Shown: positions 2,051 to 63,676, counted from the first letter of the stretch. The stretch: DNA of 64,000 nt from Paraspadella gotoi (GCA_051294375.1 CM119265.1:6891489-6955488), one strand, 5' to 3'. A program made the numbers and translations. The notes: generated by a model not told the origin, from the sequence alone.

Positions 2051-4254
2051 AATTTTTGCTTATAAAATCTGATGGCAAATACTATTCTAAGTTTTGATTC
2101 ACTACTCTATATATAAATAATATAATATATGATATATATATAAATATAAATAATTAAATATAGCTCACTGGTGCCAACCAATGTATAAAATTAAAAAATA
2201 AATTTACTAAAGTATTTTTATTGGTTTTTATTTTTGTGTTTTATATGCTAAATTTTCATTTTCTAAAATTTTATCATTTTCACATCACTCTAATGTACAG
2301 GGTTCGGATTTAAAACTTAAACCCCATAGGAAAAATTATTATTTCCTGATAAATCTGAAAAATTTAATTTTAGCAATTATTTAATCGATCTTCATGTTCA
2401 TGTTTAGCTTATGTCAGCTCTTCATTTTCCTTTTGACTCTTCCAAAGATGAGTAGCCATTATGAAAGTCTTTACGTTCTTGGTACGACTGTATATTAAAT
2501 AATGGGTCGAGAATGACATAATTTTTGTTACAAGTACAGCTAAGCATCATAATAAATTCGCCCTATACTGCATTATCCAAATGAATTTAGATACTATTAC
2601 ATGGAGCATAATGCCCTTAAGCCAAAATTGATAGAAATTATATCAAAATAAATCTTAGTATATCTTAATAATGTAGTATATTATGCTGTATAAATAAAAG
2701 ATATCGATATCGATTGTCTGGGACCTTATACCGGTAATTATATGGTACTTCAGGCTACTGGAATATACAGCAGCTTCAATTTTTTTAAATTATAAAATAC
2801 TGATTTATATTGTATGCTTTTGTTTTTGTTTTGGCTTATGCGAGAAATTTGATTTTTTGGTTGAGAATTTCTTTTAAGGTATTTTAATAGTCCTACAAGG
2901 TTCAAATTCTTTATCTCACTAACTTTATAAAAGTTACAGAGGCTGATGATATAATTTGTAATTTTTTAAAATTTAATTTTAAAAGAAAATAAAATTCCTG
3001 ATCTCTCCCTTTTATGTATAATACAGTATTTTTACCTTTACAAAAGCTTAGATGAAGTTCCATAGGGCTCTTATCCAGAATATTTTTTTGTTATCACAAA
3101 TATTAATGTATGCTGCAGTATTAATTTGTAGTAATAATTTTTTCATTAATACTATGGGACTTAGAATAACGTCAGGTTGTGGACGTTGAGAAATCCATAA
3201 ACAGTACCGTCTCATTACAACTAGAAAGAAACCCGTGAGGTTGATCATTGTAACTTTTGCATATTTATGTAGTTGGTTTTTAATTATTTCGGCGCAGAAC
3301 AAACATGACTCCTGGTTTTCGGTTGCTTCCCATACTAATGTTTTTCGACAAAACTAAATACAATCCAAAAGATAGAAAAATCCTTAACGATTCTTCCGCT
3401 ATAAAAAATAAAATTTTGTGAAACAATTGTAGGTGGGGGAGGATAAATTAGGGGCTAACTTTCAAGTCCGTACTCTGTAAAAAAAATTTTATTAATATAT
3501 TCCAAGGTTTAGTGAGGGAACAGGCTGAAATTTTTATTTTCTATAAGTTTTAACTATGAAAACTATAAAATAAAAATTGCCGTCATTGTGGTTGTGAAAA
3601 AGCTTTTGACATTCTGATTGCTCAGGCACATACTCCAACGTCTATATCTGTACAGGGACTTCAATCTGGACAGATACGAAAAGACTTGAATAAAACTCGT
3701 AATTCCTTCACTGTATATTATTTTTATAACATTTATTAGTTAGAAAACTACTTGACATTTATGTTGACCTAAAAAAATGTTCAAATTTCCTAATAGTATA
3801 ATCGCAGTCGCTCTCAAACACGGAGTCAGTTTTTTTCAATTTTTTCGTCCAAATTTTAATAGTTTTAACAATTTAACAATTTTTAACGCTGATTATATTT
3901 ATAAGAATAAAAAATTTTGGTAATAAAAAGTCAGTTTGGTGATTTGTTATTATTAAAAAAAATTCTCATATAAAACCTAACCTATTTATTGTGATAACTA
4001 ATTAACTATTATTTATCAACAAAGTCGTCTTTCATAATTTTTTTTCCCCAAACTACAATTTTTATTTTAGTATTATATCCCGGCTCTATAATTCACTTTG
4101 TCGGTCCGCCCCCCCAATCTTGTCGGGCTATCTTTTATAACATGTCAGAACATCAAATTATGATAAATTATGCATGGTAATTATCCTTTCTTTTTCGTTG
4201 TTTGAGAGATTAACAAAGTTTGATTTTATTTTTGCAACGAATTTTATTTTACAA

Positions 4255-4298
4255 GAGCAGACATGTTTCGGCTCACAATACGGGCCTTCATCAGCGCA
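4255..4298 (-). ncRNA. Minimal type I hammerhead ribozyme
   Basis: Minus strand GCG-CTGATGA-A-GGCCCgtattgtGAGCC-GAAA-CATGTC-TGC: intact core, one stem II mismatch. Confidence 0.8.
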
Positions 4299-4320
4299 TA
4301 TGAGTTGTGAACTGGATACC

Positions 4321-4479
4321 CGCCCGCCTCACCGTCAGGTGAGAAGAGGGCCGCCGGCAGGCGCATCAGGCCAGAGGGATATAAGGGTGGCCTTGGGTTT
4401 GTTTCCTCAGGGAACAATACCTGAACCAGCCAACACGAGATCAATCCCATTATCCTCTCAACCCATGACGCACCAATGA
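4321..4479 (+). pseudogene. 3' end of an unknown element-encoded ORF (copy 1)
   Basis: RPPHRQVRRGPPAGASGQRDIRVALGLFPQGTIPEPANTRSIPLSSQPMTHQ*, colinear with copies 2 and 5. Confidence 0.75.
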
Positions 4480-4728
4480 CCCGGCCCCGTCAGCAATACC
4501 TCTCCTTCATAAGACCGGGGGGGGGCCCAGCTCATTTTGAGCTCTTTCTTAATTCTTATATTTCACTACAATCTTTACTTATCTATCCCTCTAAAATCTC
4601 AATTTTCAACTTCTAAATTTCAATTTTCAACTTTTCAATTTCAAAAAATTAATTTATTTCAATTTGTTATTAAACAGTTTCCATTATCTTTATCTATGTT
4701 GTACATTGCTCAAATGTAATTATTTATT

Positions 4729-4772
<44 letters not shown>

Positions 4773-4931
4773 ACCAATTTTCACTTCTTTACAAAACTTA
4801 TTCAAACTAGCCACTTCTAAAAATCTGTCCTCACCACTGATCACTGTCCTTACTCAATTCTTTGTTGGAAACCTTTAACCCTCTCTCTCTCTTTCTTTAA
4901 CTAAAAACTTGTATCAAGTTTACAACTCATA

Positions 4932-4975
4932 TGCGCTGATGAAGGCTCGTATTGTGAGCCGAAACATTTCTGCTC
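4932..4975 (+). ncRNA. Minimal hammerhead ribozyme with mutated stem III
   Basis: CTGATGA at 4936-4942, stem II GGCTC/GAGCC, GAAA at 4961, then CATTTC in place of CATGTC. Confidence 0.65.
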
Positions 4976-5369
4976 TTGTAAAATAAAATTCGGTGCAAAA
5001 ATAAAATCAAACTTTGTTGATAAATTATGCAAAAAAAATGTCCGTCCATCCGTCCCACCTTAGCAAAATTACCAATTACTCGTGATTTGATGGAACGATT
5101 GGAATAAAATTTTTTGTGTGGGTAGGAAAGTGTGTGATTAATCTGGAAATCAAGTTTCGATGGAATCGTCCGAGTGGAAATGATTTAAAATGGAAAAAAA
5201 AAATTTTACGAGGAAGTGTCTGATTGAACAGGAAATAGTTTCAATGGAATCGTCCAAGTGGAAATAAGTTAGAATAGAAAAAACAATATATTTCACTATT
5301 TATTTTTTTTAAATTTTTATATTAGAGAGAGCAAAGAATTTTGAATTTAACAACGATTTTTTATTAGTA

Positions 5370-5414
5370 GTTGGACATGTTTCGGCTTGCTTATTTCAAG
5401 CCTTCATCAGCATA
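5370..5414 (-). ncRNA. Minimal type I hammerhead ribozyme
   Basis: Reverse complement of the 6361-6405 motif: CTGATGA-A-GGCTTG(7 nt)CAAGCC-GAAA-CATGTC. Confidence 0.8.
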
Positions 5415-5473
5415 TGACATTCAATAATAAGTTTTGTGCAAAAGAAGAGTGTGAGAGAGAGAGAGAGAGAGAG

Positions 5474-5849
5474 AGCCCCGCCGCCACCACGCCCGCACAA
5501 TGACTCCCCTATCTCCACTCAACGAGACAGGCGGAGACCCTTGCGCAGGCAATGGGCAAACGATGCCTCTCCCTCTAATGCAGCAACTCAGCCCCTCCCT
5601 CTGCGGACTGAGCGTCGCCCAAAGCGACGGCTTCAGGAGGAGGGAAAGGAGTCCGTCACTCCTGTCACAAAAGTGGCAAGAACGGACAACCGCCCACCTC
5701 GTCAGCAGGCGAGAAGAGGGCAGCCGGCAGGCGTATCAGGCCAAAGAGACATAAGAGTAGCCCTGGGGATCTTTCCCCAAGGATCGCTTCCCAATCCGGC
5801 ATTCATCAGTTCGGTCATACTCTCCTCTCAGCCACTGACACGCCAATGA
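5474..5849 (+). pseudogene. 3' end of an unknown element-encoded ORF (copy 2, longest)
   Basis: Basic, Pro/Arg-rich ~124 aa ending KRRLQEEGKESVTPVTKVARTDNRPPRQQARRGQPAGVSGQRDIRVALGIFPQGSLPNP...SSQPLTRQ*. Confidence 0.78.
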
Positions 5850-6142
5850 CCCGTCATCATCGTCCTTGTCCTTCATTTGCGTAAAACAAGGGGGGCCAGC
5901 TCACTTTGAGCTCTTTCTTTCCCTTGAATTTCACTTTCTTAATCTCCTAATTATCAACTAAAACTAAAAACTACTTTCTTTCATTTTCACTTAACTATCC
6001 CTTAGCTAATTACTTATTTATTCACTAGTTAAATGTTAAAATTTCTCCAATGTTATTTTTTCAAACTCCTTTATCTTTGTTGTACATTGAAAAAATGTAT
6101 CTTTATTATTTATTTATCTCTGTTGTTTTGTTTCTCTCTCTC

Positions 6143-6177
<35 letters not shown>

Positions 6178-6281
6178 AACAAGTTTCACTTCTTTTCACA
6201 ACTCACTCAATCTGTCCTTACCTTCAACCTGTCCTCACATCTGACCACTATTCTGTCTCACCACTTTGTTGGAAAAACTTT

Positions 6282-6325
<44 letters not shown>

Positions 6326-6360
6326 CTCTTCTTTTGCACAAAATTTATTATTGAATGTCA

Positions 6361-6405
6361 TATGCTGATGAAGGCTTGAAATAAGCAAGCCGAAACATGT
6401 CCAAC
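6361..6405 (+). ncRNA. Minimal type I hammerhead ribozyme
   Basis: CTGATGA 6365-6371, 6-bp stem II, GAAA 6392-6395, palindromic ACATGT stem III, GUC cleavage triplet ending at 6401; AATAAA 9 nt downstream. Confidence 0.82.
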
Positions 6406-8528
6406 TACTAATAAAAAATCGTTGTTAAATTCAAAATTCTTTGCTCTCTCTAATACCTATGAACAACGAAAAAGAAAGGATTAACGCATCAATTTTTATA
6501 TTAAATGTAAATTCAAGTTGCGTTAATTAATTATTAATAAATAAGTAATTAATTATTAATTAAATAATTTATTTTGTGATCGAGATTGCTGTTTTGTGAT
6601 TGAGAGACGAGACAAAACTTTTTTGACACGAATTAAAAAAATTAATATTAATTAATTATCTGATCAGCTGCTTACCGCTAATGATCGTGGGCAGATCCGG
6701 CATTGTTTGCTCAAACTTGTTTGATTCTTTTTCGTGATACATTTATTAGAATATCTTATTAAACATAAAAATGAAGCATGAGAAAAAAATTAAATTGTTT
6801 TAATGGTAACTGAAGGATTGATAGTAAGATCCACTTTCAAAGTAAAAATTTCAAAGTTAAAAATGCTTCTTCAGAAATTTACCCTCTGAGGAAAAAAGCA
6901 ACTATCCTACCTAGAATGTTACGAATTGGTGGGAAAAAAAAGTCGAGTATTTTTCTATTATTATGAAAAAATTTTATAACCCGATTGCTCTTCGTTTTGA
7001 TTATATTACAAGTCATTTTGTATCAGTATAGATTGAAGTAATTGTATGAACTAAATTTTTTTAACATTGTTTTTTTCATAAAAGTTTATCTAGTTGACAG
7101 GAAGGTCCTTTTCAAATTCCAATTTTTTTTTTTTTTGATTCGACCATGCCATTGATGAGCACATTACTAAGAAAGTAAGCAAGCTGGACTACTGGGGGTT
7201 GAAAAATAAAAAAACGTCAGCGATTTTTCTACCAGAGTTCAAAATCTGAAGTTGCTATAACAAATTATTTAGCCCCAGTATTTCATCTTTTCATTTCACT
7301 CCCATTTGAAATCCGTGTATATTATATTTTGTCGATTGAATGTTGAGATTTATGTATTTTAATATTACAGCGACAAAAGTGAATGCTCGGGGTCAATATC
7401 TGTGATAGAGAAATGCATCTCTGTAATTCACTTTTTATCGTCGCAATCGCTTGCGATGGTGGACGATGGTCCCCATAAATGGCGTTGTTGTTCCAAATTA
7501 TAGATCGTTTTTTTTGGTCGGATCTGCTTATCAGCAGATTCCGAATCTATAATTCACTTTTTCGGTCCGTTGGTCCCCACCCTCAATCTTGTCAGGAATT
7601 CACTTATATCATTCAGAACTTCGAATTATGATAAATTATGCAAAAAAAATGTTTGTCCGTCCAACAAAAAACACCTATTACTCGTGATTGGATGGATGGA
7701 TTGGAATGAAATTTTGTGTGTGAGTAGGGAAGTGAGTGATATAAAGTGAGTTGGATATGAAGTGAGTTGGATATGAAGTGAGTGAGTGATATGAAGTGAG
7801 TTGGATATGATATGATAATTTGATATCGCATCAATAATTCGTTATCATCGCATCAATAATTCATTATAATTGCATCAATAATCAATTAATCAATAATTCG
7901 TTATCGCATCTATCATTCGTTTTTTTTTCTGATTTTTCATTAATTTTCTTCTAATGTCTGTCGAGATCATTATACTTTAAAATTTTTTTTTATGCGATTG
8001 CGATGATCCTTATGCTTTTAAGATTTTTTTTATCCGTCTCAAAGAGCCAATTAATATTTAACAAAATATTTTGACTCTGTAGTGATCACTCTTACTCATT
8101 ACTTATCTCCTTTTTTTTGGTTTACCTAAAGAATAATTTATTTTGGTTGTTTATATTTTGATATTCCCATGAGGGATTTTTAGTAGAGTAGCAAATAATT
8201 TATTTTATCTCGCCAGAAGGGCTTAAAGCCCATCTTGGCGATATAATCGTTTAGAATTGCTTCTTTGTGCCATCGTCGTTCTTGTCGTCACGCTTTTTTT
8301 ACAATGGGAAATTGTAAAAAGCTAAAAAGCAAAAAAATTAGATATAGCTTTTCAACATCAAGATCTTTTAAAATGATATGTTTCATATCGATTCAAGTAT
8401 TTTTTTATTGAATTTCGTTTTCCTTATGATTTATTTAAATTGTTTGTAAATCTTTCTTTTCGTTGGTAGAATGATTAGACGAAATAACAATTTTCAGTTT
8501 TTCACAACGAATTTTTTATTTAAATGGT

Positions 8529-8571
8529 AGCAGACATGTTTCGAACGTGTATTTCGTTCATCATCAGTGCT
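8529..8571 (-). ncRNA. Minimal type I hammerhead ribozyme
   Basis: Exact reverse complement of 8749-8791. Confidence 0.85.
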
Positions 8572-8596
8572 GAGACTGAATTACAAAATTTGGTAA

Positions 8597-8667
<71 letters not shown>

Positions 8668-8690
8668 ACAAGCTTTATCCCTTTGTCTTT

Positions 8691-8723
<33 letters not shown>

Positions 8724-8748
8724 TTACCAAATTTTGTAATTCAGTCTC

Positions 8749-8791
8749 AGCACTGATGATGAACGAAATACACGTTCGAAACATGTCTGCT
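8749..8791 (+). ncRNA. Minimal type I hammerhead ribozyme
   Basis: AGCA-CTGATGA-T-GAACG(aaataca)CGTTC-GAAA-CATGTC-TGCT: 4-bp stem I, 5-bp stem II, GUC cleavage site at 8787. Confidence 0.88.
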
Positions 8792-9689
8792 ACCATTTAA
8801 ATAAAAAATTCGTTGTGAAAAACTGAAAATTGTTATTTCGTCTAATGATTTATTTAAATATACAAATTAGAATATAGTACTAATTATCAAGTAAAAATGT
8901 TTTTTAAAGTTTTGGGCACTTCCATGTCTTGGGGCTTAGGGGCAAAAGGGCGAATTTAAAAATTCTACCTGAGGAAAAGTATATTCGAAAATTTTATTTC
9001 CTTTTAATTTTATCTTAAATAAAAATTTTAGGGAACCTGGAAAACTTCATTTCATAGCACTGGTAAATTAGTAATATACAAAAATTTGACAATGAAAAAA
9101 ATTTTCTGTAATCTATAGACATGAAATTCTTTTAATAACTACACGCCATATATAATGACTACTTATGCTGGAAGAAATCAGCGAAACGTTTTCCTTTTTT
9201 TTTTTAATTAGTACTAGCGCTTCAGAAATATTAAGAAAGTTGAAAATTTTATTCTGAAAAATTTTATCTTTTAATGCATACGTTTTGAATTATATCTCAA
9301 AAACCATTGGCATCTTTCTTCATGGATCGGCATAAAAATATACAAAAAATAAATTGGTATCAATTCTCTGATGGGGTATATACTTAACCCTAGCATTTTA
9401 AGCGGGTTTTACCTTTAACCCTAACCCAGGCTTTATTTTTAAGCCTTAACCCAAAACCTAGATTGTAATTTATTCAAATAATGATGAAGCGGGCGATTCA
9501 CGCATACTCGTAGGTGTGGTTTTAATTGGTTGACGACTTTGCTATGGCAATATCGCCAGAGCCTTAGCGGCGATTCCAATACCCGTACTGGCGACCTCGC
9601 CAGTGATAAAAGTAATGAATATAACAAAAGGCGCGAATTAAAGGGCCCTTTCTCCAATTTAATTCTAAACCAGGTTTCCATACATTTCA

Positions 9690-21467: not shown

Positions 21468-22535
21468 ACTTAATTCATTGTCTATGTAATTTGTAAAAAA
21501 AATGCGTGTCACTTATGACTGTTGAGAGTACTGATAACAATGGCGAGTTGCGGTTTAATTTGCTTTTTCAATTTCAACTCTCTAGGCAAAGTAGAATATA
21601 GAATACACATTGTGCCCCTTAAAAATTGTCTTCAAAGCCGAGCGATAAAATAATACTACGATAAATTCCGTCCTTTCGTCATCACTATGTTGGACATCAA
21701 CTCTCGTTGTGGTTCGTCGATCTTATAACCCCGCTCATCAATTATATCTTTTTAACATGTTATGACGAAACACATATTTCAGAACGTCATTGAGACGAAC
21801 ATTTTAATTTCGTCGACTTCACGAAGTTTCGACAGTCCTCCATCCAAGAAATCTATTTTGTGGCTCATGAGTCCAACTTAGAAAGTGTTGGTTCGTTTTT
21901 ACTTCGCCAGATGGGTTAAAGACCGACTTGCTATTACATCAATCAATTGTTATTACATCAATCAATTGTTATTGCATCAATCAATTGATATTACTTCAAT
22001 CAATTGCTATTACATCAATCAATTGCTATTACATTAATATATATGCTATTACATCAATCAATTGCTATTACATCAATCAATTACTATTACATCAATAATT
22101 TGTTATTGCATTAATCATTCTTTTTTTTTCAGATTTTTTTATTAATTTTCGGCGAGATCACTATACTTTAAGATTTTTAGTTTTTAGTCGGGTCTGATTC
22201 TCGCAGATTCCGACTTTATAATTCATTGTCGGATTGACAGTCCACCCCCACAATTTTGTAAGAACATCAAATTATTATAAATTTTGCAAAAAACATGTCT
22301 CCGTCCGTCCGTCTATCCGTCCGTCCCCCTCTGCAATTACTCGTGATTGGAAGAATGGATTAGAATGAAATTTTGTGTGTGGCTAGGAATTGGTGTGATG
22401 GAGCTGGATATGAAGTTTTGATAGAATCGGGCGAGTCGAAATGAGTTTAAATGGAAAAAAAATTCATGTTTTTTCGAAATCTTTTACTTATATTTAGTCT
22501 AATTATTCTAATTATTAAAAATTAGATAGATAAAT

Positions 22536-22767
22536 TGTGTTTATCTTTTTTTCAGTGTTTTTTTCAAAACTTAAAAGCTCTGATAAAGGCTTGAATTAAA
22601 GCCGAAACATGTCACTCCGGTAAATAAAAATCGTTGTTGAAAAAAAAATATTTTGATAGATAAATCAAAACACTGATGAAGACTCGAACCTGTCAAGAGT
22701 CGAAACATGTCCGTTAATAATGTCAATTACAAATTCCTTGTAAAAAGTAATAAAAACTTACGTTTTC
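22536..22767 (+). mobile_element. Two tandem short hammerhead-bearing pLTR fragments of the same family
   Basis: Motif 1 at 22580-22613 (CTGATAA variant, GGCTT/AAGCC, GAAACATGTC). Motif 2 at 22673-22711 (CTGATGA, GACTC/GAGTC, GAAACATGTC). Each is followed by the family's AT-rich 3' segment. Confidence 0.72.
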
Positions 22768-25339
22768 GATGGATAAATTAAAATTTTATTTTATATGTGG
22801 TTATATGATTAAACTGGATATAAATTTTTGATAGAATCGAAGGAGTGGATAAGTGTTTAAATTAAAAAACCAAAAGTCACCTTTACTTAAATTTTTTAAA
22901 AGATTCTCTCTCTATATCTCTCTCTGATTTATTTATTTTATTGATTAGCTGATTGATAATTTTTAGTCGGATCTGCTTTCTGAAGATCCCGATTCTATAA
23001 TTCACTTTGTCGGTCCGCCCCCCCCAATGTTGTCGGGCATTCACTTACATCATGTCAGAACATCGAATTATGATAAATTATGCAAAGAAAATGTCTGTCT
23101 GTCTCATTGTGTCTGTCTGTCCGTTCGTCCGTCCCACATTAGCAAAAAGCTCCAAAAACTCGTGATTGAGTGGTTGGATTGGAATGAAATTTTGTGTGTG
23201 GATAGGAAAGTGTGTGATGGAATCGTGCGAGTGGAAATGAGTTAAAATGGAAAAAACATAAGTCTCATTTACTAAAATCTTTTTACATATTTTAACATAT
23301 TTTAACCAATAATTACTCAAATTAATCATAATTGAATTAATAGATTAAGATGAAATTTTGTGTGCGGGTAGGAAAGTGTGTGAAGAAGCGAGATATCAAG
23401 TTTTGACGGAATCGTGCCAGTGAAGATGAGTTTAAATGGAAAAAAACATAAGTCTCATTTACTGGCATACCATTTTTTTGCTCAAAAACCCTTTTTTCAT
23501 AAAGTTTTATGTAAATCTTTAGAGGGAATACCCTATTTTAAGTTTTTCCAGGTGAAGGAGAAGAGAAACAATATCCATGCATCAAAAAGTTAATCAGATT
23601 TATATTTTTTTTTCTTTTCCTTAAAAAAAACCTTTAATCCAGCAATAAAAAAATTATCATTTATACTATTATGTAAAATCCTTTCTTTTGTCGCGTTTTT
23701 GAATTAGAAAGAGTTTGAAGTTTGAAGCAACAATTTTTTTTAAACAGTGAAAATGTTTTTTTTTTCAATATGTATCTCTCTCTCTCTGGCCTAAACCTAA
23801 CCTCTCTTCCCCTCGACCTCTATCCTTTTCTCAAATCTTTGTTGAAAATTTTTTTCTCTCTCTTTCTCTCTCTCTCTCTTCCCTTACTCACCTAATTCTC
23901 ACTCTCTCTTCCTTTCTCTCCTCTCTCTCCCAAATATTTCTTGTGATGTAAAAAACTGTTGACAATTCATAAATATGGATGAAGACTTGAATTAAAAGTT
24001 GAAACAAGTTCACTGTTTAAAATCTGATACGAATATAAGATCAGTTTTAATAAGCTGTATAAACTTTATTAATTATTTTTTTCTATTGAGTTTCATTTAA
24101 CTTTAGTCCCAAGGGTTTTATAACTAAGACGACTCTTATTCAAACCTTGAGTATATCATATCAAGTTTCATTATAATAAATAATACAGCAATATAAAATT
24201 ATTAAATATTTTATTGTTTTGACAAGGAATAACATATATTTAGTCTTAAGCAATTCATAGTAGAATTTACAAATTCATTTTTATTACTTTCATGCGAATA
24301 TTTTGATTCTTATTAACAAATCATTTTTCAAGGCAGTTCTTTTGTATTTTGCTCCTCTCTCTTTCTCTCTCTCTCTCTCTACCTGACTTTTTCTGGAACA
24401 ATTTACTTTTACTCTGGACTGCCTTTAAAAATGATTAGTTCATAAGAATCAAAATGTTGGCAAAAAAGTAAGAATATTATACTTATAAATCCCACCACGA
24501 ATTGCTTAATACTAAATATTTTTTTATTCCTTGTCAAAAAAAAAGTTTATATGCTTAATACTAAATCATTATCTCCTGTGCATATGAAGTCTCTTCAACA
24601 ATGAATAAAGAAATAATATTAATTCTGAATTTTAACAGTTACTAAAAAAGTATCTTTTGTAACTGATATTTATTTTGTCTATATAGAGCTATGATAGTTT
24701 TTTATGATTATATAATTCTTTGTGATACAACCATTATATTTATAGTAGATCAAGAACTATTAATATTGCGTATTTTATCAGTTTTTGAGCGTCTTTTTCG
24801 GTTTTGGACACGCCCACTATGGGTAAGAACATTTTTAAAAAAAAATTTTAAAGTAAAACTTATTAAATAATGAGAGTAACTTAAAATTTAGGCAATTATT
24901 ATTTTTATAAAACTATTTTCTTATCTTGCAATTAAAGAAAAGAGAAAAATTCCATGTTGTAGTCAACGTCAACTTCCGGTCAATTGTGCGTAGGTCTAAC
25001 CCAAAATCTGATTGAGGACACCTTGTTAATCGTTTTACGCACTTAAAATTATACTAGAAACTGTACAGGATTGTGAAAATTTTCGACTGAATGGTTAAAA
25101 AAAAAACAGTGTACTCATCATGACTTATCTGTTTAGCTGCTTACCGCTAAGTTATCGCAGGCAGATCCGACATTGTTTGCTCAAACTGGTTAATTGTAAA
25201 TTAGTTATCGGATTAGCGAAGTAACAATTGTATACTTTCCATATTTTGTCGTACATAGTATTTCGCAATTATATTTTTAATGATTTTCTTATGATTACGA
25301 ATATTTAAATATATATTTAATTTCTTTAGTTTGGTAAAA

Positions 25340-27925: not shown

Positions 27926-28136
27926 TAAATAAATATATCCCATTTGAAATATGAATATAATTTGTTTATTTTTAACATTTAAACTAAAATGGTCCATTAA
28001 AAAGAATCCGAGAATGCACAAACTACTAATGATTGGTTGCTCAGTAAGTTATTGTCGATTTGTAACCATTAGTTTACATTTTTTTTTTAGTCATTTTGGC
28101 TACATTAAAACGTTGAATTCCATTAATAAATCAACA

Positions 28137-31100
28137 ATGGGTGAAAACGAATCTCAGTTAAAAGGATGGCTTTACGGGTGGCTCGGAAAACGCGGCGTTA
28201 CTCCCGACTACAGTATGCGTCAGACTATGACCAAGAACAAACAGACCCGTTTTATATCCGAGCTTCGCGTCGATGGCTTCAATTATGTCGGTCATGGAAA
28301 CTCCTCAAATAAGAAGGACGCACAAACCAATGCCGCTCGTGACTTTTGCCAGTTTCTTGTCCGAACAAAAGAGTTAAAGCCAGAGGATGTTCCAGGGTTG
28401 CAACCCACTGCCACAGAGTTCATCGGGAACGCTCCTGTAGAGAATCCCGATGACAAAGAGGCGAACCGGACGTCACTTCCCTTTGCACCCATGCCGCATC
28501 AGTCTGTCGGCGCTGCTTTGGGTCTCACAGGTGCCGCCGGACCCAACTTAGATGTGGCGCCGTATCAACGCGGTCCACCACAGGAGTACCTGGCCAAAAT
28601 CGCGCTGCAGCAGCAAAAGCGCGTTGAGGATGCTGAGGATCTTGATATGACAGCCACCAAACATGGGAACTGGACGTTAGAAAATGCTAAAAGCAAATTA
28701 CACCAGTTTATGCAGGTTAATCGAATTTCTACTGACTACAAATATTCCGCTTTTGGCTCAGATCATTCGAAATCATTCGCTGCCGAGATGTCTTTTTATG
28801 TCAAGAGTATCAAGAAGACTGTGCAAGCTAAAGAGCATGGATCAAACAAACAGATGGCTTCCAAGGCTTGTGCGCTCTCTTTGGTGCGACAGTTATTTCA
28901 TCTTGGCGCCGTCGAAGCTTTTTGTGGAACTTTGGCGCGAAAGAAGGAAGTTGATGCGATGCCCCCATTCGCAGTTGGAACTAATTCTGCTCTTAAGGAA
29001 AAACTCATTGCATTTGTGAAAAAGATGCAGCTTAAAGTTGCAGCAGCCCCCAATGAAGGGTCAGAACCTGCGAATCTAATAATCGGTGATCGACTAAAGG
29101 ATTTTGAAACTAATAAACCACAGCGTGGGGGCGTTGTCGCTTGGTCTCCACCAGCGCCTAATTGGAACCCATGGACCGGATGCAATATTGATGAAGGCCC
29201 TTTGTCTTACACACCTCTGGCTGATATTTCCAGGGATCTTCGAGAGGCACAAGTTCAACGCGTTCAGCATGATGAGCAGTTACGCGCCATTGGACAGGAA
29301 CGATGCAAGCTGCCAGTTTTCCAATTTCGACAGTCCATTCTTGACATAATCGAAAAAAATACCGTTGTTATCATCAGGGGGGCCACTGGATGTGGGAAAA
29401 CCACCCAGGTACCTCAATATATTTTAGAAGATTGGATTGATAAATATAAAGGAGGGGAATGTAATATTATTGTGACACAACCACGCCGCATTTCCGCCGT
29501 ATCCGTGGCGGAGCGCATGGCCGAGGAAAGATGCGAGGAATTGGGCCAATCAACCGGCTACAGTGTTCGTTTTGAATCTTGGCTTCCACGTCCATATGGA
29601 AGTACCCTTTTTTGCACAGTTGGCGTTCTACTCAGGAAGTTAGAAGGAGGCCTGAGAGGTGTAAGCCATGTAATCGTCGATGAAATTCACGAGCGAGACT
29701 TAAATTCTGACTTTTTACTAGTCTTGTTGCGGGACATGGTGAAGGCATTCCCAGATATGAAGGTCATACTAATGTCAGCGACTATTGATACATCACTTTT
29801 TAGTGAATATTTTGGGGGTTGTCCAATTGTTGAGGTCTACGGTCGAACACATCCAGTTCAAGAGTATTATCTTGAAGACTGTATCCAGATGACGAGCTTC
29901 GTTGCCCCGCCGCCAAAGAAAAAAGCTAACAAAACAAACAAGGATGATTCTGACGAAGAAATGCCAGACGAAGACCCGGCCCTGAGTGAGAATCTTAACA
30001 AAGTGTGTGCTGCTGATTATCATGAGCAAACGAAACGTCAAATGTCGGTTCTAAGTGAGAAGGAGATCTCTTTCGAGTTAATTGAATCCTTACTTAAATA
30101 CGTCAAAAGTCTCAACACTCCGGGTGCGGTCCTGATTTTTTTGCCTGGGTGGAATCTTATCTTTGCTTTAATGCGCTATTTACAGGAGCATCCGTTATTT
30201 GGGACGGCTTCGTACAAGATTTTGCCTCTTCATTCGCAAGTGCCAAGAGAAGATCAGCATAGGGTTTTTGAAGTTGTTCCTTCAGGCGTTACTAAGATTA
30301 TTCTTTCCACGAACATTGCCGAAACATCTATCACAATCAATGATGTTGTCTACGTAATCGACTCTTGCAAGGCCAAAATGAAGCTGTTTACCTCGCACAA
30401 TAACATGACCAACTACGCCACTGTCTGGGCTGCTAAAAACAACTTGCTCCAAAGACGAGGACGGGCCGGCCGTGTTCGCCCCGGCTTTTGTTTTCATCTA
30501 TGTTCTCGAGCCAGATTTGAAAAACTCGATGAGCATATGACGCCCGAGATTTTCAGGACTCCTCTGCACGAAGTTGCTCTGGCAATTAAGCTCCTGCGCT
30601 TGGGTTCGATCAAGGATTTTTTGAGCAAAGCGATGGAGCCTCCGCCCATTGATGCAGTGACCGAGGCAGAATTAACTTTACGTGAAATGAACGCCCTGGA
30701 TGAGAACTATGAGCTGACTCCACTTGGAGCTATTCTGGCGCGCCTCCCGATCGAGCCACATCTTGGAAAGATGATTGTTCTTGGATGTATTTTAGGAGTC
30801 GGTGACGCCGTCTGCACAATCGCTGCTGCATCCACGTTTCCCGAACCGTTTCTTACATTTGGAAAAAGATTACCGCAGATGCATCGGAGGTTTTCCGGGA
30901 CACGTTATTCGGATCACGTTGCTCTCTTGTCCGTTCAGCACTCTTGGGAGGAGTCAAGAACAGGAGGTGAGGAACAGGAGTTTAGGTTCTGTGATACGAA
31001 GTCGCTGGCAATGCCTATTTTGAGAATGACCTGCGAAGCCAAGAACCAGATTCGTGATATCCTCATCAACTCTGGTTTCCCGGAAAGTGCCGTGGCCCCT

Positions 31101-31868
31101 ATAAATTTTAACTACAACGGACCGGATATCAAGCTCGACCTACTCATATCAATCCTCGTCATGGGACTCTATCCGAACGTCTGCTTTCACAAAGACAAGC
31201 GCCGTTTAATTACCATGGGGGGGAAGCCAGCGCTCATACACAAAAACTCCGTCAACTGCTCATCTTTCGATACGACCTTCCCCAGTCCGTTTTTCGTGTT
31301 TGGCGAGAAGATCCGCACCCGCGCGGTCTCGGCTAAACAGATGACCATGGTAAATCCCCTGCAGCTTCTGCTTTTCGGGTGCAGCAGATGTACATCTGAC
31401 GGACAAGGTCTGGTGGTTATGGACAATTGGATAAAATTGCAACTAGAACATGAATTGGCGGCAAGTATACTGGCTCTGAGGCCTGTCATCGACGCGCTGC
31501 TCGTGAGGTGCTCTGAAAATCCCGAGAGCATGTCGACCCCTGATGAGACAGACGGCGAACTCGTAGCATTGATTCAAGAACTGTCATCTCAAGATGCGGC
31601 GGACTATGGTATTGATCGAGCCGTCTCTAACCCTACCTCCGATTTTGGCCCACCACCTGCGAAATTTTCACGTGGAGGAAGTTTTGCTCCGAGGGGCGGA
31701 TTCAGGGGTGGTTATCGAGGCGGTTTTAACGAAAACTTTGGACCGAGGGTCCCAGGATTCAGTCGAGGTTTCCGTCCCTTATTTGCTGTAAGATCGAGAG
31801 GATATGCTGGTCCGAGGGGATTCGGTGGGAGCAAGTTTGGCGGTGGGAGAGGACGAGGATTAATGTGA
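28137..31868 (+). CDS. DHX9: DExH-box RNA helicase A (DHX9/maleless), intronless coding region
   Basis: Two N-terminal dsRBDs ([13 protein letters not shown]; [10 protein letters not shown]), [31 protein letters not shown]2/OB-fold region and a C-terminal RGG tail. The likely ATG is 28137 ([18 protein letters not shown]). Confidence 0.96.
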
Positions 31869-35160: not shown

Positions 35161-38100
35161 ATGTCTTCTAAAGAGGTATAGTTTTTCTGGATAAAGCATC
35201 TGTCTTATGAAATTGGTACAACCAATATAAATTATGATATATTATTATTCGATCAAAGTGATAACTTGTTAATAAAGGCGTGATTTCAAACGCTTCAGAA
35301 TTCCCCGGACGCGGAAAAAGATCTCACCCAAGCACATCCTCCGACCCCCAACACTGCTATACTCGAAGCTGACCGTCAGGCATTAGAGGAGCAAATTTCA
35401 GCAACTTTAAGCAATATTCAACTTTCGCGAGGCGTAGCAGATATCGATGTTAATGAGGATGACTTCACTGAAGAGGATGTGGAGAAATTGGAGGAAGTTT
35501 TGGCGGGTTGCGACCACGAATACAACAACCTCTTCGCCACGCTCGATCAATTGGGATCGTGTCTGGACGAGGTTAATAATTAATATTTTTAGGCCTAATT
35601 GTATTTTCCAAGACTGAAACCTACCCAGCAGAGGGACTTGGTCAGTAAGTCCGTCCGTCTGTTTCTGGGTTGGCAAAAACCTGGGTTTTTTTAAAAAAGC
35701 CCACTGGGTTTTTTTGGGTTTTTTGGTTTTTTTGGGTTTTATTGGGTTTTTTTGGGTTTTTTTAAATTATAGATAGCAGACTGTCATATTAATTTTTTTT
35801 AAGATACTAATTTAAAATATTTATACTTCTTAAGTGATTACGGATAAAAATATATAAAAATATACTAAATATATTTAATAATAGTATTAATTAATATTTT
35901 TTATGTTAAACAGAAATGTAATAAATATAAATATTATATTTTCTGAATAAAACCTGTTATGAAAAAAGTGTATAAGGGTTTTTTTGGGTGGTTTTTTTAA
36001 TGCCAACCCTGATCTGTTTGTCTGTAGTTTGTTCCATTTACGTTATAACTTATAGTAAACACATTTGAATCCGACAAAGTTTTAATTAGATAACGAGTCT
36101 GGGTGTCATTCTGTTCGTTTTTCCAAGCTCTTTTTAACTAAAAAAGTTTTAATTAAAAAAAAAAACTTTTTCGCCCGAGCAAGGGGTGTTGAAGAGTCAA
36201 AATATGGAAATTCACCAATTTTTAGTATTTTGTAGCTTTTTCCATTTAATTTTTTTAATATAAATAATCCTTATCAAGTTAATTACTTCTGATAATGATT
36301 TTAATTTATCCTATTTAACTGTTTTTAAAACATTCATTAAAGAATATTAGTTTTTAGCTTAAGCCAAGGGTGTTGAAGAGCTAAATATTTTAAATATTTT
36401 TTTTTAATATTTATAAATATAATTTACTATTTTTTAAAGATAACTTATTTTAATCATGGTAATGAAAATATTTTGATATCTTTAAATGCTTTGAGGTGAC
36501 TTACCACAGCTTTAAGTTATTAATTAATTTAATATATTTTTAAAACTGAAAACCCCAAAAACTTCTATGATCCAAAGCAATTAATTTTAATTTTTAATCA
36601 CAAAATGTAATTGTTACAAGATAAAATTATTTAAATAATATTCGGATATTATTAAAAAAAATATGTTTACTTTATAATATATAAATATAATTTATAAAAA
36701 AAATAATTTAAAAATGATATCTGCATATAAATTTGTTATGGATAAGAGTAATAGTTTGGTTTAACTCTATATACAAATATTTTTGTTATTAATAAAATAA
36801 TTTTTTTTAATATACAATAATTTTTAACCATTGTATTAATCCTTCAGCTTCGCTGAGTGTAGAGATTTAAACAAAGTTTGAAAAAATATTTCATCAACGA
36901 TTTTATTTAATGATATACGGCATGTTTCGACTCTATTTTCGAGTCTTCATCAGCGTTAGTGATGCATTTTAAAATTTGTGTAAAAGAAACATTACATTTT
37001 TGAAATATAATGTTTCTCTTTCTCTCTCTCTCTTTTTCTCCATTTCAAAATCAACTTATTTCCCCTTTCTCCTGTCCTTGCCTTCACCTGTCCTGAAATC
37101 TGACCACTGTCCTTTCTCAATTCTTTGTTGGAATCTCTCTCTCTTTTCTCTCTCTCTTTCTCTCTCCTCTCTCACTCTCTCTCTATCCCCATTATGAAAA
37201 ATACAACTGTCAAATGCTGATGAAGACTCGAAAACAAGAGTCGAAACATGTCCAATACTTTGTAATAAAATCTGTTGTAAAAATACTAAAAACTTTCGTT
37301 TTCGAATCTGCTATCTTATTGAACAACGAAAAGAGAGAAAAATTACACGAAATTTTAATTAAAATATAAATCATTTCTATCCTAGCATCCCACGTAAGTC
37401 CCTCCCCTAGCCCTAACCTCCGCTTCGCGTCCAAGGCCAAGCATGAACCTTGAACCTATCATCGCCCATAAAACTTTTCCCATCTGTAACTTTCCAGTTG
37501 CGTATAACTACAACAACCTTGTTGATCGGAATGCTAACTTTTACTTATTCAACCTGAATTACAACTACCTCAAATGTTAAAACTAAACACTACCCTTAAC
37601 CTAATTTTGTAAAATTGCTATAACTAGAACATTAGTTTCAGTTCATTAACAAAATTATTATTTTCTATGGCATATCGCATAAAATCTGATAGTGATATCA
37701 TTTGAATAATTATATCTTTGTTGTAACAATTTCATTATATGATAAAAAATTTTATGAATTGCTTTGTTTTAAAAGTGAATCTTTAAAAAAAACTTTTTAG
37801 AAATAGGTCACAATAGTTTGTAATGCTTTTAATTATAAAAAATCAATTAACTATGTTAATTAACTTGAAAACCATTTAAAATTTTCAAATATTTTTATGA
37901 TCATGATTAAAATATGTAATCCTTAAAAATTAGTAAATTATCATTTGAAAATACTAAAAAAGACAATTTGAAAATTTGACTCTTTAATACCCCTGGCTTA
38001 AACCCTAAACTAATATTTTTTGTGAATGAATGTTTTAAAATAGTTAAATATGATAAATTAAAAGCAGTATCATTAGTAATTAACTGGATTAATGATAATT

Positions 38101-41721: not shown

Positions 41722-42139
41722 CAGTTCCAAGCTATATCTACCACTATTGCAATCATTTTCTATCTTTTAATAGTTGCAATTAGGGACAATTATTTGTATT
41801 ATATCGCCGCTGACGATGTTGTTAACCTTTTTGGATTTATCAATATGTAGCAGTTTGAATATATCCTTGAACTATATGAATACTATGTACATACATACAT
41901 AAAGGATTTTCTAAAGTTAATTTGAGCATACATCTTTGGTTCTGATTGGTTTTCAGTTTTAGTAATTGGATAAGTGCACTAAGTCATATCCTATCGTAGT
42001 TGCTACACGTAGTCTTTTTTTCGTATGTCCTACGCGTTATACTAATGCAAGAAAAAAAAATGTTCTCCCGAAGTTTAGTGGATGATTTTGGCGATGGATC
42101 ATATATTACTATTCCCTTTTGAATTAGGATGTTAATAAG

Positions 42140-45100
42140 ATGTTGGCCGCCATAGGCTTAGCTTTTTTTCTGGCGTTTTGTTATAACATCACCTTTGCAA
42201 TGACCTTTAACATCAGCACGGAGGAAGTGAGTTACATTGGAGCGGAGACGGCCGACCTTGAAAAATCTGTCAAGACCGAGAATGAGACTGAGAATATACT
42301 CCGCGATCTCGTCAAAGAGACCGGAAGTCCCCAGCGCTTTGCGATTTTGCTCATGGCCCTTGCCCTCGCCATGTTTTGGGTTTTGTACGTTTCTTATTAC
42401 AACTCTCGGATAGTCGGCAAGATATTGACGGCTTTCGTAAACCGTTTCTACAAAACCCGCAACACGCAGATACACATTGGTTCTTTTTCCGTTTCCGTCC
42501 TAAGTGGCAAAATCTTGTTTCGCGATATCCAATATATCACTACAGATTACGCGCTCAGAATCCAAGACGGTTTCATTATTTTCATGTGGTGGCGCAAGTA
42601 TGAACCCAAAGACCCCGGTTCAGACTTTAGCCACGCTGATACCAGGCTTCTGGTGCAGTTGAACGGTTTCGAACTCCACGTCTACAATCGGAGCTTTCTA
42701 TATTCGGACCTGGAAAAAAAATTTGGGCTCTCCCCTTTGATTATTTTAGAAAAAGATTTGGGTCAAGAACACGAAGTCAATGATGTTGAAGTTACCCAAA
42801 ACGCTGAAAATGCTGGAGAAAGGCGGAACGAGGAACTCTTGAAGAAGTGGTGGTGGCGCGATCTAATTCCCATAATCAAAGTCGATATCACTTCCGGTAG
42901 GTTTGTTGCCGGAAATCATCAGGTGCCAACGACCCTAGTCGTAACTTTCGACCAAGCCAACGCTGTTTACTACACCAAAAAAGCGCCAAGCTCAAAAGAT
43001 CTATTCACACACATTGTGGAATGTAAACTCGAAAGCTCGCGAGTACTGCTATCCAAATCTCCAAGATATCGGGGAGAAATTGATGACGAACCTCCACGCT
43101 TCATGGGTGAAGGATTTGTGGTGATGTCATCGCATGAAACTACAATTCATTATTATCAGGACGAGCCGGGTTACGCGGGGAACTGCGACGGAATGTCAAA
43201 CGATCCTGAATGTTTTCCTTATTGGGGAATAAATATTAAATGTGGAAGAGGAACGAACCTATCATACGGACCTTGGGTGGATAGACAAAGGGATCATCTA
43301 TATAAATTTTTTTTCCCCTCCGATTATCAAATTCAGAATCCTACCGAGTATCCAATTGGAAACCAATTACGAATAGTTCAAAAATTTGACTTCAAGTTAA
43401 GCATGCAAGAGGGAATTGAAACGCTCGACATTTTGTTTTTGAACAAAGAAAACGATCTTTGCGCCATTCATTCAAAATGTGGCAAAGGATCGTTTATCGA
43501 AGTTTGTCTGCCCTGGGTAACGAATGAAACGGGATTTTCCACTCATATTCGGGGCATTTTATTAAATTGGGAAGCTACGACCAACATGCAATTTCGCTCA
43601 CTAATTCAGAGCGAAACATTGGATTTTCAAATTGATTGTTTATATCCGTTGCAATGGAATTTACCCCAATCTTACACCTTAACTTTAACAGGAACTAAAG
43701 CAACTGGTTTTCTTGTTATGCAACACGTAGACTTGTTTGGCTATCTCATAAACGACTGGGCTTCAAAAACTAGACCAGATGTTTATCACTTCGTGCCGTA
43801 TGACACATTTCTTAATATCGAGTTAATTGACTTTGAAATCCTTTTGCCTGCTAACCAGTTTAACTGGGTTGATTGTGATTCTCAGCATTTAGAAAACATG
43901 TATGCCGCTGTAATTGGAAACAATTTTCGTTTAAAATATGACATTCCATTTGGTGAATTTTTACCAAAAATAGTTGCAACAAAACTTCATATTCAAGGCG
44001 AAGCTTGTGATATTTGTTTTCTCATTCCAAAGTCCAATTCTTCCAGTCACGTTCTTAAAGCCCTTGAGGATGATATCGAGCTTAGTTCAGATTACAAAAA
44101 TATGTTTGGAACCAGAAAATGGAGAAATTTTACTCAAGATAATAATGAATTGATTTGTATTAATTGCTGGTCCGTTCCTTTAATTGTTGTACCTTTTACA
44201 TATAATTATCATCCCTGTCCGCCTTTGTCGGATTCACCGTTAGAAGTAAAGATTTCTACAGCTCCTACTCCTTGTACTACACCCGAGATGGAAGAGCATT
44301 TACTTTTCCCCCTCAGAGTACCTGCAAATGACCAAGAGGTTCATGCTCATCCATTATCTTTTGACCCGTCAATTTTGGAACCAGATAAAATGCATATAGA
44401 AGTTGAATTTGTACCTTCGGAAATTGTTTTATATGGAACATTTTTAAAAATTCTACTTGCTTTAAAAGAAAATTACTTTGGAGATTGTGATAACATAATG
44501 GATTTCAACACTTTTAAGCTTCCTTCTTATAAATCTTCAAAACAAAATGATCTCGATAGAGATAAAAAGTTCGATTCACGTAAATATCGTCCTTTAAATG
44601 TTTCTTTGAATCTTGTAATACATGGTCTTCGTGGACATCTTGCAATGCATCGTGGAAAAGATGAGCCGCCATGTCCAACCGTTTACGTCGACCGACTTTG
44701 TTTTGAATTACATCGACAATTTTCTGGAACAATGCTACAACTTTTATCGTCGCCGATAGTAATATCAGTTATGGACAATGTTCAAAGGATTGGAGATCAT
44801 GCCAAGTTGAAAAGCAATGGTCATTTGTGTCTTAGTTGTTTTCAATTAAGAGGACAAGCAATGTTTTCACATAAAGGATTGCTTCCTCACGAAACGCCTT
44901 TGGAATATGCCTGGTTACTAGAATTACAATTTGGGGAGTTAACCGGAAAGCTTACAAGTCCACAACTCTTAACACTTTTAAATGCTTTACAAACAATTTT
45001 TTTTCTGGTCAAGGACAGCGAAAATTCTTTACAGTCTCCCACAACAACTTATGAATGTATCCACAAGAACGATGCAACTTTTTGTTCACAAGCACCCAAT

Positions 45101-63277: not shown

Positions 63278-63676
63278 TACTATCTTACAAGGTGACACAC
63301 GACAGCCCGCCGCTAAAAAAAAATCGTCATTTTAATCTGAAATTTTTTTCCAGATTTCATATTGATTGGTTATAATTTGACTTGGCAATGACCGGAAAAA
63401 AGTTGCTTTAAAAATTGTCTTTAATTTTAAAACAAATATTTTTTTGTCTAACTTTATAAACATTTTTTAAAGAACTTTTACATAAAAAGGTATCAATATT
63501 AATATCTTCTGAAAGCTCTTAAAAATTTAAAGAAAATGACATATTTAAAAATATTGTAACATGAAAATAAGTTTAACCAGCGTTAGTTTAATCAAGATAA
63601 TCCAAATTGAAATAATAAAATGCTAAAATATATTTTTTTAAATATCTGACCTATTTTAACTATAATGATAATTTGA

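Follow-up and report, generated by a model that had tools for sequence, protein, structure and literature searches.

How Penelope-like elements (PLEs) insert is understood only in part, and for the process in vivo the chief evidence comes from natural insertions. In LINE-1 twin priming, reportedly described by Ostertag and Kazazian in 2001, each of the two ends left by a staggered break primes cDNA on the element RNA, and the products are joined with an inversion. The second LINE-1 primer anneals anywhere inside the RNA, so that the inverted part is a different segment of the element, and the 3' end is poly(A). Metazoan retrozymes are small type I hammerhead repeats without a reverse transcriptase of their own, thought to be mobilised by PLEs; they occur as direct or tandem repeats, have no reading frame and yield circular RNA. 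Class II elements and MITEs carry fixed terminal inverted repeats and target-site duplications (TSDs) of fixed length.

Endonuclease-bearing PLEs have one reading frame for both a telomerase-like reverse transcriptase and a GIY-YIG endonuclease. PLE insertions include an inverted 5'-truncated copy, a variable TSD and an optional tail of 30-40 bp, which is tied to neither end and often occurs on one side alone (PMC8557442, PMC3846280). For example, in Pen2a_Av of Adineta vaga, a 31-bp tail is optional on one inverted pLTR (PMC3846280). The available text of PMC4209133 lists, for metazoan PLE hammerheads, an extra base between positions 9 and 10.1, a G10.1-C11.1 pair, a helix II of 5-6 bp and a palindromic ACAUGU replacing helix III. 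Biochemically, the available text of PMC11167929 describes Poseidon of Anolis carolinensis (PAc), whose protein cleaves and extends both target strands in vitro, with unprocessed RNA as the main template. Reverse transcription starts there at two adjacent sites, both internal, and the interval between them is the tail; the ribozyme cut site lies 26 nt after the start codon and the start site at 111-118.

We analysed a 64,000-nt window of the Paraspadella gotoi genome (GCA_051294375.1 CM119265.1:6891489-6955488), which is the sample for all copy counts below. Positions 4175-6490 hold two distinct insertions of one repeat family. In each (copies 1 and 2), a short inverted arm stands head to head with a longer body, and an exact TSD of 13-14 bp surrounds the whole:

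4161-4174, no strand: left TSD of copy 1, 14 bp, TGATAAATTATGCA, exact repeat of 5018-5031
4175-4211, minus strand: tail of copy 1, 37 nt, on the inverted left arm, extending past the arm-to-arm homology
4212-4319, minus strand: inverted 5'-truncated arm of copy 1, inverted repeat with 4911-5018
4257-4294, minus strand: hammerhead core of this arm
4320-5017, plus strand: body of copy 1, alignable to 5680-6301 in copy 2; it holds the last part of the conserved reading frame (stop 4477-4479), an untranslated region containing (CT)n and a tail-less 3' end
4936-4973, plus strand: hammerhead core of this body
5018-5031, no strand: right TSD of copy 1, exact flanking repeat
5312-5324, no strand: left TSD of copy 2, 13 bp, AATTTTTATATTA, whose last 5 nt (TATTA) also match the arm
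5320/5325-6490: insert of copy 2
5320-5475, minus strand: inverted tail-less arm of copy 2, a 156-nt inverted repeat, 98% complementary to 6300-6455
5371-5410, minus strand: hammerhead core of this arm
5476-6455, plus strand: body of copy 2, with reading frame, two (CT)n tracts and 3' module
5478-5849, plus strand: conserved reading frame of copy 2, lacking a start codon and hence 5'-truncated
6365-6404, plus strand: hammerhead core of this body
6456-6490, plus strand: tail of copy 2, 35 nt, on the body-bearing right arm
6491-6503, no strand: right TSD of copy 2, exact flanking repeat

The same plan recurs in a third complete copy (8441-8846), bringing the complete two-armed copies within the window to three, and in a copy running off the window end (63675 onward), which the earlier note called copy 5. 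The longest insert is 1171 bp and 5'-truncated. Further copies and relatives are as follows:

8426-8859, no strand: copy 3, a near-palindromic two-armed insertion with TSD, tail, arms and two hammerhead cores
8426-8440 and 8845-8859: left and right TSD of copy 3, 15 bp, ATGATTTATTTAAAT
8441-8473: tail of copy 3, 33 nt, left side
8474 to ~8673, minus strand, and ~8674 to 8846, plus strand: arms of copy 3
8530-8567, minus strand, and 8753-8790, plus strand: hammerhead cores of copy 3
22536-22654 and 22666-22767, plus strand (whole 22525-22778): two single-armed tail-less insertions of different subfamilies
23655-24031, no strand: old decayed copy, E = 0.0029
36832-37341, no strand: composite, both of whose ends are tail-like; hammerhead cores 36916-36953 (minus) and 37217-37255 (plus)
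63675-64000, no strand: window-end copy, with left tail and inverted arm, then a plus-strand body cut by the window end
63759-63797, minus strand: hammerhead core of the window-end copy, whose conserved plus-strand frame ends at 63995

At 22525-22778, an 11-bp site occurs three times (22525-35, 22655-65 and 22768-78, with 1 mismatch), giving each of the two direct modules a separate TSD. The decayed copy retains a tailed left inverted arm ending inside the ribozyme and a plus-strand body, and its right end is not definable. We rejected a single-event reading of the composite at 36832-37341 as unproven: its arms are 83% alike, no closer than unrelated copies, and the flanking repeats around it do not exceed 7 nt. 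By eye, its flanks match at 9 of 12 positions in AT-rich DNA, which we did not accept as a TSD.

Ten hammerhead cores, five per strand, were found in the window. They are minimal type I hammerheads with traits that match the list for metazoan PLE hammerheads in the available text of PMC4209133. In helix II both sides change in 4 of 6 pairs and 87% of cells are paired, a covariation score that none of 500 shuffles reached. Rfam returned no family at the gathering score over the whole window, and at E up to 10 over 4000-6700 it gave four weak unrelated matches, none of them a hammerhead; a metagenome scan with this hammerhead variant yielded 0 loci. We also considered a conserved pairing between UCGUUGU, ~21 nt after the cut, and ACAACGA in the tail, and kept it as a lead only. 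Its covariation score was reached by 27 of 500 shuffles. In 3 of 6 modules this pairing is the fold of minimum energy. Five of the six modules fold with energies that do not improve on those of shuffles (z -0.46 to +0.11), and the sixth (z -1.93) folds without the pairing.

Upstream of the ribozyme module lies a conserved reading frame of 123 aa that is under selection. It had no Pfam match and no usable match in the protein atlas, none of 544 candidate longer proteins scored, and a phmmer search against 1.84 billion representatives produced two weak matches to repetitive proteins that we judged spurious. Neither the copies nor the rest of the window showed a reverse transcriptase or GIY-YIG endonuclease; of the 26 open frames of at least 110 aa in the window, the 9 scanned against Pfam gave host-gene domains only. 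Contigs from other genomic copies extend 5' of 5476, the start of the copy 2 body; given such copies, a full-length master could still encode both enzymes. The insertions may thus be 5'-truncated descendants of a longer autonomous element, or members of a non-autonomous family with an orphan reading frame.

Judged by its non-coding features, the family likely belongs to the hammerhead-bearing PLEs. The copies have an inverted 5'-truncated adjoining copy with variable breakpoints, a hammerhead, a one-sided tail and a variable TSD; as for direct pseudo-LTRs produced by partial tandem arrangement, no direct pair surrounds a body in the window.

Part of the stretch is present in 9 of 11 listed sequencing runs from three studies, none of the nine an RNA run, in contigs that are short and derived from many genomic copies. 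A 109-nt contig of run X1 spans the right junction of copy 1 (4938-5046) with 0 differences. The left junction of copy 2 is spanned to 5348 by contigs from X1 (from 5171, 178 nt, 0 differences) and X3 (from 5152, 197 nt, 1 difference). Joints skipping ~855-870 nt at copy 1 were considered as empty alleles and rejected, since they belong to paralogues of the host repeat; the run contigs yielded no empty site at the allele level. An uninterrupted paralogue of that host repeat at ~23075 is colinear with the reconstructed empty site of copy 1.

The earlier note had observed that the tail changes arms while the reading frame keeps its orientation, and we recovered this pattern. The tail lies on the inverted left arm in copy 1 (4175-4211) and on the right, body-bearing arm in copy 2 (6456-6490); the window-end copy again has it on the left inverted arm, with the conserved frame on the plus strand, and in copy 3 it is also on the left. 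For a 19-nt tail core, ACAACGAAAAAGAAAGGAT, the window contains exactly two matches (4183-4201, minus; 6463-6481, plus), where chance predicts a mean of 0.04 and none of 100 shuffles held two or more. TSD lengths vary (14, 13 and 15 bp in copies 1-3 and 11 bp at 22525-22778); as a control, 4 of 3000 random pairs of 60-nt windows shared at least 13 nt.

Measured from the ribozyme cut site, the ends fall into two discrete zones 33-37 nt apart: five tail-less ends at 41-59 nt and six tailed ends at 85-92 nt. In copy 1, the tail-less 3' end (5017/5018) lies 47 nt from the cut and the tail ends at 85 nt, and the copy 2 tail ends at 89 nt. Within one copy, it is true by definition that a tail-less arm ends where arm and tail meet; the two zones are the non-circular form of this observation. 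The overlap between the tail-less arm and the TSD, which the earlier note had reported for copies 2 and 3, was borne out: it amounts to 1 nt in copy 1, 5 nt (TATTA) in copy 2 and 2 nt (AT) in copy 3. A summed overlap of at least 8 has a chance probability of ~8e-4, mostly from the 5-nt case.

Inversion points do vary, as had been claimed, and every copy has its own joint. That of copy 2 (5475/5476) is where the (GA)n tract ends, that of copy 1 (4319/4320) is 25 nt past the CUGAUGA box, that of the window-end copy (63797/63798) is at the edge of this box, and that of copy 3 is at ~8673/8674. Arm lengths span 108 to ~200 nt across copies, and inverted repeats of 156 nt (98%) and 128 nt (89%) were recorded; BLAST gave 94.6% identity over 111 nt for the inverted arm of copy 1. 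Sequence in the inverted arm continues past the ribozyme cut site. This arm consists, in copies 1 and 2 as well as the window-end copy, of the 3' module, from ribozyme to start site, and not of the sequence adjacent to the joint.

Taken together, we consider it probable that 4175-6490 holds two TSD-flanked insertions of the PLE family, each built from two target-primed cDNAs, of which the one started distally is tailed and the one started proximally is tail-less. The element endonuclease would make a staggered cut, and both target 3' ends would prime reverse transcription on RNA left uncleaved at the ribozyme. The cDNA from the distal site would carry the 33-37 nt tail and that from the proximal site, just upstream, would lack it, with pairing of 1-5 nt between target end and RNA probably aiding the proximal start. 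Head-to-head joining at a variable point, followed by gap filling, would then yield the TSD. Which strand uses which start site appears not to be fixed.

Such a two-cDNA origin had been proposed in the earlier note. Its second initiation, indicated by an arm made of the 3' module, and its two start zones are upheld by the copies examined here. The note also suggested that one cDNA may begin at the RNA 3' end; nothing in these copies marks the end of the RNA, and both PAc start sites in vitro are internal. The accompanying prediction of exactly one tail per clean insertion fared less well. One tail is present in all three complete two-armed copies, and both single-armed TSD-flanked copies are tail-less. 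Since tailed ends make up 7 of 12 overall (~58%), independent choice at each end would still give three of three with P ~0.12, so the one-tail rule is not established. With only three complete two-armed copies in the window, the coupling lacks statistical establishment. The composite at 36.8 kb, with two tails, is an exception to the one-tail plan.

The strongest competitor combines ideas raised in PMC3846280 and PMC8557442: one cDNA would fold back and prime itself, on itself or on an antisense template, to create the inverted repeat, and an endonuclease cut at the arm/tail boundary would leave the tail on one side. Palindromes at inverted junctions have been reported (PMC3846280), and earlier work cited in the available text of PMC11167929 found tail sequence to be needed for endonuclease recognition. 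The arms of copy 3 form a near-perfect palindrome around a short spacer and stop at a common template point, within ~11 nt of each other. Arms stopping this close resemble a fold-back product, and to that extent copy 3 counts against two cDNAs. We nevertheless regard fold-back as improbable for the family. Copies 1, 2 and the window-end copy place a 3'-module arm beside an unrepeated reading-frame body; simple fold-back cannot make such an arm, so cDNA synthesis must have begun a second time, on the other target strand. The joints also differ among copies, and the tail-less ends overlap the target, as expected from priming or annealing.

Far less probable still is that two independent 5'-truncated elements inserted in opposite orientation at the same site. 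The window does offer one 11-bp target used twice (22525-22778) and a composite with arms of different subfamilies and two tails (36832-37341), but copies 1-3 have a single outer TSD and none at the joint, and arm similarity in the first 100 nt of the module is 88-99% within a copy, against 67-89% between copies. Least credible of all is that the structures are DNA transposons or MITEs bounded by terminal inverted repeats, or that a palindromic repeat was misassembled: inverted termini and TSDs are present and short-read assemblies are troubled by such structures (PMC8557442), but arm length is unique to each copy, TSDs measure 11-15 bp, the ends are asymmetric in their tails, single-armed copies occur, contigs of other runs bridge two flank junctions with at most one difference, and the geometry is common to three loci.

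Returning to the two target-primed cDNAs, we tentatively raise a stronger version, which is possible though doubtful: priming may be coupled and asymmetric. A paired ribonucleoprotein would make one distal and one proximal start, so that exactly one tail is obligatory, the strand is random and, within a few nucleotides, pairing between the target 3' end and the RNA selects the proximal start. This would go beyond the in vitro report on PAc, which found neither a strand difference nor homology (PMC11167929). If true, two reverse transcriptase molecules would have inherently different tasks, and the tail would be the record of this.

The accepted view of PLEs is unchanged by these insertions, which serve mainly as a clean example of it. 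They agree with the 2024 in vitro picture, as given in the available text of PMC11167929, of both strands being extended from two start sites. To this they add that the tail is strictly one-sided among complete two-armed copies (3 of 3, in this window) and that a few target bases are shared by the tail-less start. The proposal of two cDNAs was thus reasonable and mostly anticipated by the literature.

Among other systems, LINE-1 twin priming shares two break-end-primed cDNAs joined with an inversion; unlike LINE-1, the present family has no poly(A), and both cDNAs start in the same 3' module, resulting in an inverted repeat. Retrozymes resemble it in being short, in their type I hammerheads and in having no reverse transcriptase of their own, whereas inverted arms, TSDs and a conserved reading frame set the family apart. 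Class II elements and MITEs differ from it, given arms of 108 to ~200 nt, TSDs of 11-15 bp and a one-sided tail.

Closer parallels are found among the PLEs. The family is like Pen2a_Av and the scheme in Fig. 2 of PMC8557442 in its hammerhead terminal module, inverted truncated copy, variable TSD and optional tail. It differs in that no reverse transcriptase or endonuclease frame is visible, the frame upstream of the ribozyme is an orphan, and, within the window, no direct pLTR pair flanks a reading frame. As in PAc, start zones ~35 nt apart define the tail, the RNA is uncleaved at the ribozyme and targets are AT-rich (available text of PMC11167929). By our own arithmetic on the positions given there, the PAc start site lies 85-92 nt from the cut, the very distance of the tailed ends here, which suggests that the spacing from cut to distal start is conserved between the lizard element and the Paraspadella gotoi family. 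That report finds the start site and the cleaved DNA to lack homology, in contrast to the 1-5 nt target overlap of the tail-less ends here, and its main text does not discuss inverted arms, which are present here. Overall, a mirror-image arm with a one-sided tail of 33-37 nt is an architecture already in print for PLEs; the family that displays it here is new.

The region at 4175-6490 holds two separate insertions, both from one repeat family, a hammerhead-bearing Penelope-like element (PLE). Three complete copies in the window (copies 1, 2 and 3) are two-armed: an inverted, 5'-truncated arm is joined head to head with the body, the joint being the inversion point, and a target-site duplication (TSD) flanks the whole. 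The tail is the 33-37 nt that extend beyond the arm-to-arm homology at one end. This anatomy can be read directly from the insertions:

4161-4174 and 5018-5031: 14-bp TSD of copy 1
4175-5017: copy 1 insert, body on the + strand, tail-less end at 5017
4175-4211: copy 1 tail, 37 nt, on the left inverted arm
4212-4319: copy 1 inverted arm, joint 4319/4320, 25 nt past the CUGAUGA box
5312-5324 and 6491-6503: 13-bp TSD of copy 2
5320/5325-6490: copy 2 insert
5320-5475: copy 2 inverted arm, tail-less, 98% complementary to 6300-6455, joint at the end of the (GA)n tract
6456-6490: copy 2 tail, 35 nt, right side
8441-8846: copy 3 insert, 15-bp TSD, 33-nt tail on the left arm
63675 onward: window-end copy, left arm tailed, joint at the CUGAUGA box edge, cut off on the right by the window end
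4315-4479, 5478-5849 and 63831-63995: conserved reading frame upstream of the ribozyme module

The earlier note had described a tail that switches sides, lying on the left inverted arm in copy 1 and on the right in copy 2, and a joint that differs among copies 1, 2 and the window-end copy; both points hold, and the observation is confirmed as a whole. Of 3000 pairs of randomly drawn 60-nt windows, just 4 had at least 13 nt in common, and the TSDs are therefore not due to chance. When the empty site of copy 1 is reconstructed, an uninterrupted paralogue of the host repeat aligns across it colinearly. Contigs of other sequencing runs, which may include the window's own source sample, cross two flank junctions and show 0-1 differences. 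The host repeat hit by copy 1 (4060-4174 and 5018-5290; also ~22200-22450 and ~22950-23460) contains (GTCC)n-like runs and a conserved ...GATAAATTATGCAAAA... stretch, and is very abundant, its summed depth in contigs of sequencing runs being roughly at least ten times that of the element's own bins.

A regular-expression scan of the whole window recovered 10 hammerhead-like cores, 5 per strand, and a profile of the 3' module (the segment from the ribozyme to the element's 3' end) matched 12 places. Six of these are the tailed modules that built the profile and thus match by construction; the others are three tail-less partner arms, two direct modules at 22.5 kb and one decayed copy (E = 0.0029). 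The cores comprise CUGAUGA plus an extra base, a helix II of 5-6 bp closed by G10.1-C11.1, and GAAAC, with a palindromic ACAUGU standing in for helix III. They fit the minimal hammerhead of metazoan PLEs by the traits set out in PMC4209133, and the remaining architecture of the insertions is as described for PLEs. Rfam models gave no hammerhead match at gathering scores across the whole window or at E up to 10 within 4000-6700. Helix II covaries, with both sides changed in 4/6 pairs and 87% of cells paired, and none of 500 shuffles reached its covariation score. The surrounding DNA (G+C ~31%) carries long host exons of DHX9-like helicase, BLTP1, NDUFB2 and TAF11-like genes. Unusually long unbroken exons at 27948-31868, 42128-53652 and 56886-60902 belong to the DHX9-like helicase, with its dsRNA-binding motifs, and to the BLTP1 homologue, which is spread across three long open frames.

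The reading frame upstream of the ribozyme is open in all three copies holding it and ends at a common TGA (4479, 5849, 63995). Across its C-terminal 55 codons, pairwise differences at first, second and third codon positions number 10, 10 and 26; 16, 8 and 22; and 15, 11 and 24, and this third-position excess points to past selection on a protein. Copy 2 has no start codon for the frame. Contigs from other genomic copies run on 5' of 5476, so the window copies are 5'-truncated. Protein searches, including phmmer against 1.84 billion representatives, returned neither a Pfam domain nor any credible relative; the frame could encode either the C-terminal part of an RT-endonuclease protein or a small protein of its own. 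Within it lies a GC-rich hairpin (5698-5713, 4328-4343), CUCACC-GUCA-GGUGAG in copy 1 and the window-end copy and CUCGUC-AGCA-GGCGAG in copy 2, with one compensatory A-U to G-C change among just three sequences.

Measured from the ribozyme cut site, the ends fall into two clusters: tailed ends at 85, 89, 92, 89, 87 and ~87 nt, and tail-less ends at 41, 47, 49-54, 57-59 and 57 nt. This puts in non-circular form the earlier claim that the tail boundary is where the tail-less arm stops. The claimed overlap of the tail-less end with the TSD was also borne out, at 1, 5 and 2 nt in copies 1, 2 and 3; the chance of a sum of at least 8 is ~8e-4, carried mostly by the lone 5-nt case. If the copy at 37.3 kb can stand in for the RNA sequence, there is also a 2-nt overlap at a fourth tail-less end, 22767. 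UCGUUGU, ~21 nt past the cut, is complementary to ACAACGA in the tail (6419-6426 with 6462-6469). The complementarity is conserved at the same places in the other tailed modules, with both sides changed in two pairs, but is poorly supported by thermodynamics and shuffles. In the anole element, its counterpart may be the AC-rich stem-loop at the start site.

Exactly one tail was found in 3/3 complete two-armed, TSD-flanked copies. With 7 of the 12 definable ends tailed and 5 tail-less, independent choice at 7/12 would give this outcome with P ~0.12, so that one tail per two-armed insertion is suggestive only. The rule proposed for every clean insertion does not extend to the single-armed copies, tailed in 0/2 cases. 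These are two modules of different subfamilies, in direct order at 22525-22778, around which an 11-bp site, GATAGATAAAT, occurs three times, with one mismatch in the third occurrence. The arrangement suggests that one staggered cut position was used twice, which, if true, would imply a marked endonuclease target-site preference. The head-to-head structure at 36832-37341 has a tail-like end on either side; its arms belong to different subfamilies and are 83% alike, which is no more than between unrelated copies. Repeats in its flanks do not exceed 7 nt; by eye, 9/12 flank positions match. It could be two events or an old composite; one event from two different RNAs is less likely. At 23655-24031 lies a decayed copy that is tailed on the left and whose right end cannot be delimited.

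In copies 1 and 2, as in the window-end copy, the inverted arm is a repeat of the 3' module, and the sequence on the joint side is the unrelated reading frame. Such an arm therefore cannot come from a cDNA that folds back at its end; it calls for reverse transcription to have been initiated a second time within that 3' module, from the other target strand. Fold-back followed by endonuclease resolution thus misfits these three copies and is unlikely overall; it does fit copy 3, where the template points reached by the two arms lie within ~11 nt of each other. Two independent insertions, which suit the 22.5 kb and 36.8 kb sites, are a highly improbable source of copies 1-3, where one TSD surrounds the whole structure and the arms are 88-99% alike. 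A terminal-inverted-repeat transposon or an assembly artefact has slightly less chance still, given that arm lengths vary, the tail is one-sided, single-armed copies exist and contigs span the junctions.

All arms read through the ribozyme cut site, so their templates were uncleaved. For Poseidon of Anolis carolinensis (PAc), the account in PMC11167929 describes cleavage and extension of both target strands in vitro, reverse transcription starting at two adjacent internal sites whose interval is the tail, and uncleaved RNA as the main template. Because a second initiation is needed, and because of these PAc results, we consider double target-primed synthesis the most likely origin of the insertions. 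Both target strands would prime cDNA synthesis on uncleaved element RNA, one of two start zones in the 3' module would yield the tailed end and the other the tail-less end, and the two cDNAs would be joined head to head at a point varying by copy. We infer the sequence in which these events occurred, the part played by microhomology and the number of RNAs used, one or two. The two-cDNA reading of the earlier note is thus supported in part, as regards initiation on both strands and two start zones, its one-tail rule being suggestive only.

The insertion phenomenon and its likely cause are both already in print. In titles and abstracts, we found no paper treating PLE insertion structure together with twin priming, and inverted arms are not taken up in the main text of PMC11167929. 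Tying two-strand priming, the inverted arm and the one-sided tail together explicitly is therefore a modest synthesis, not a discovery. By the figures in PMC11167929, PAc is cut 26 nt after the start codon and has a start site at 111-118; by our arithmetic, which is not a statement of its authors, this start site lies 85-92 nt from the hammerhead cut, the same distance as the tailed ends here.
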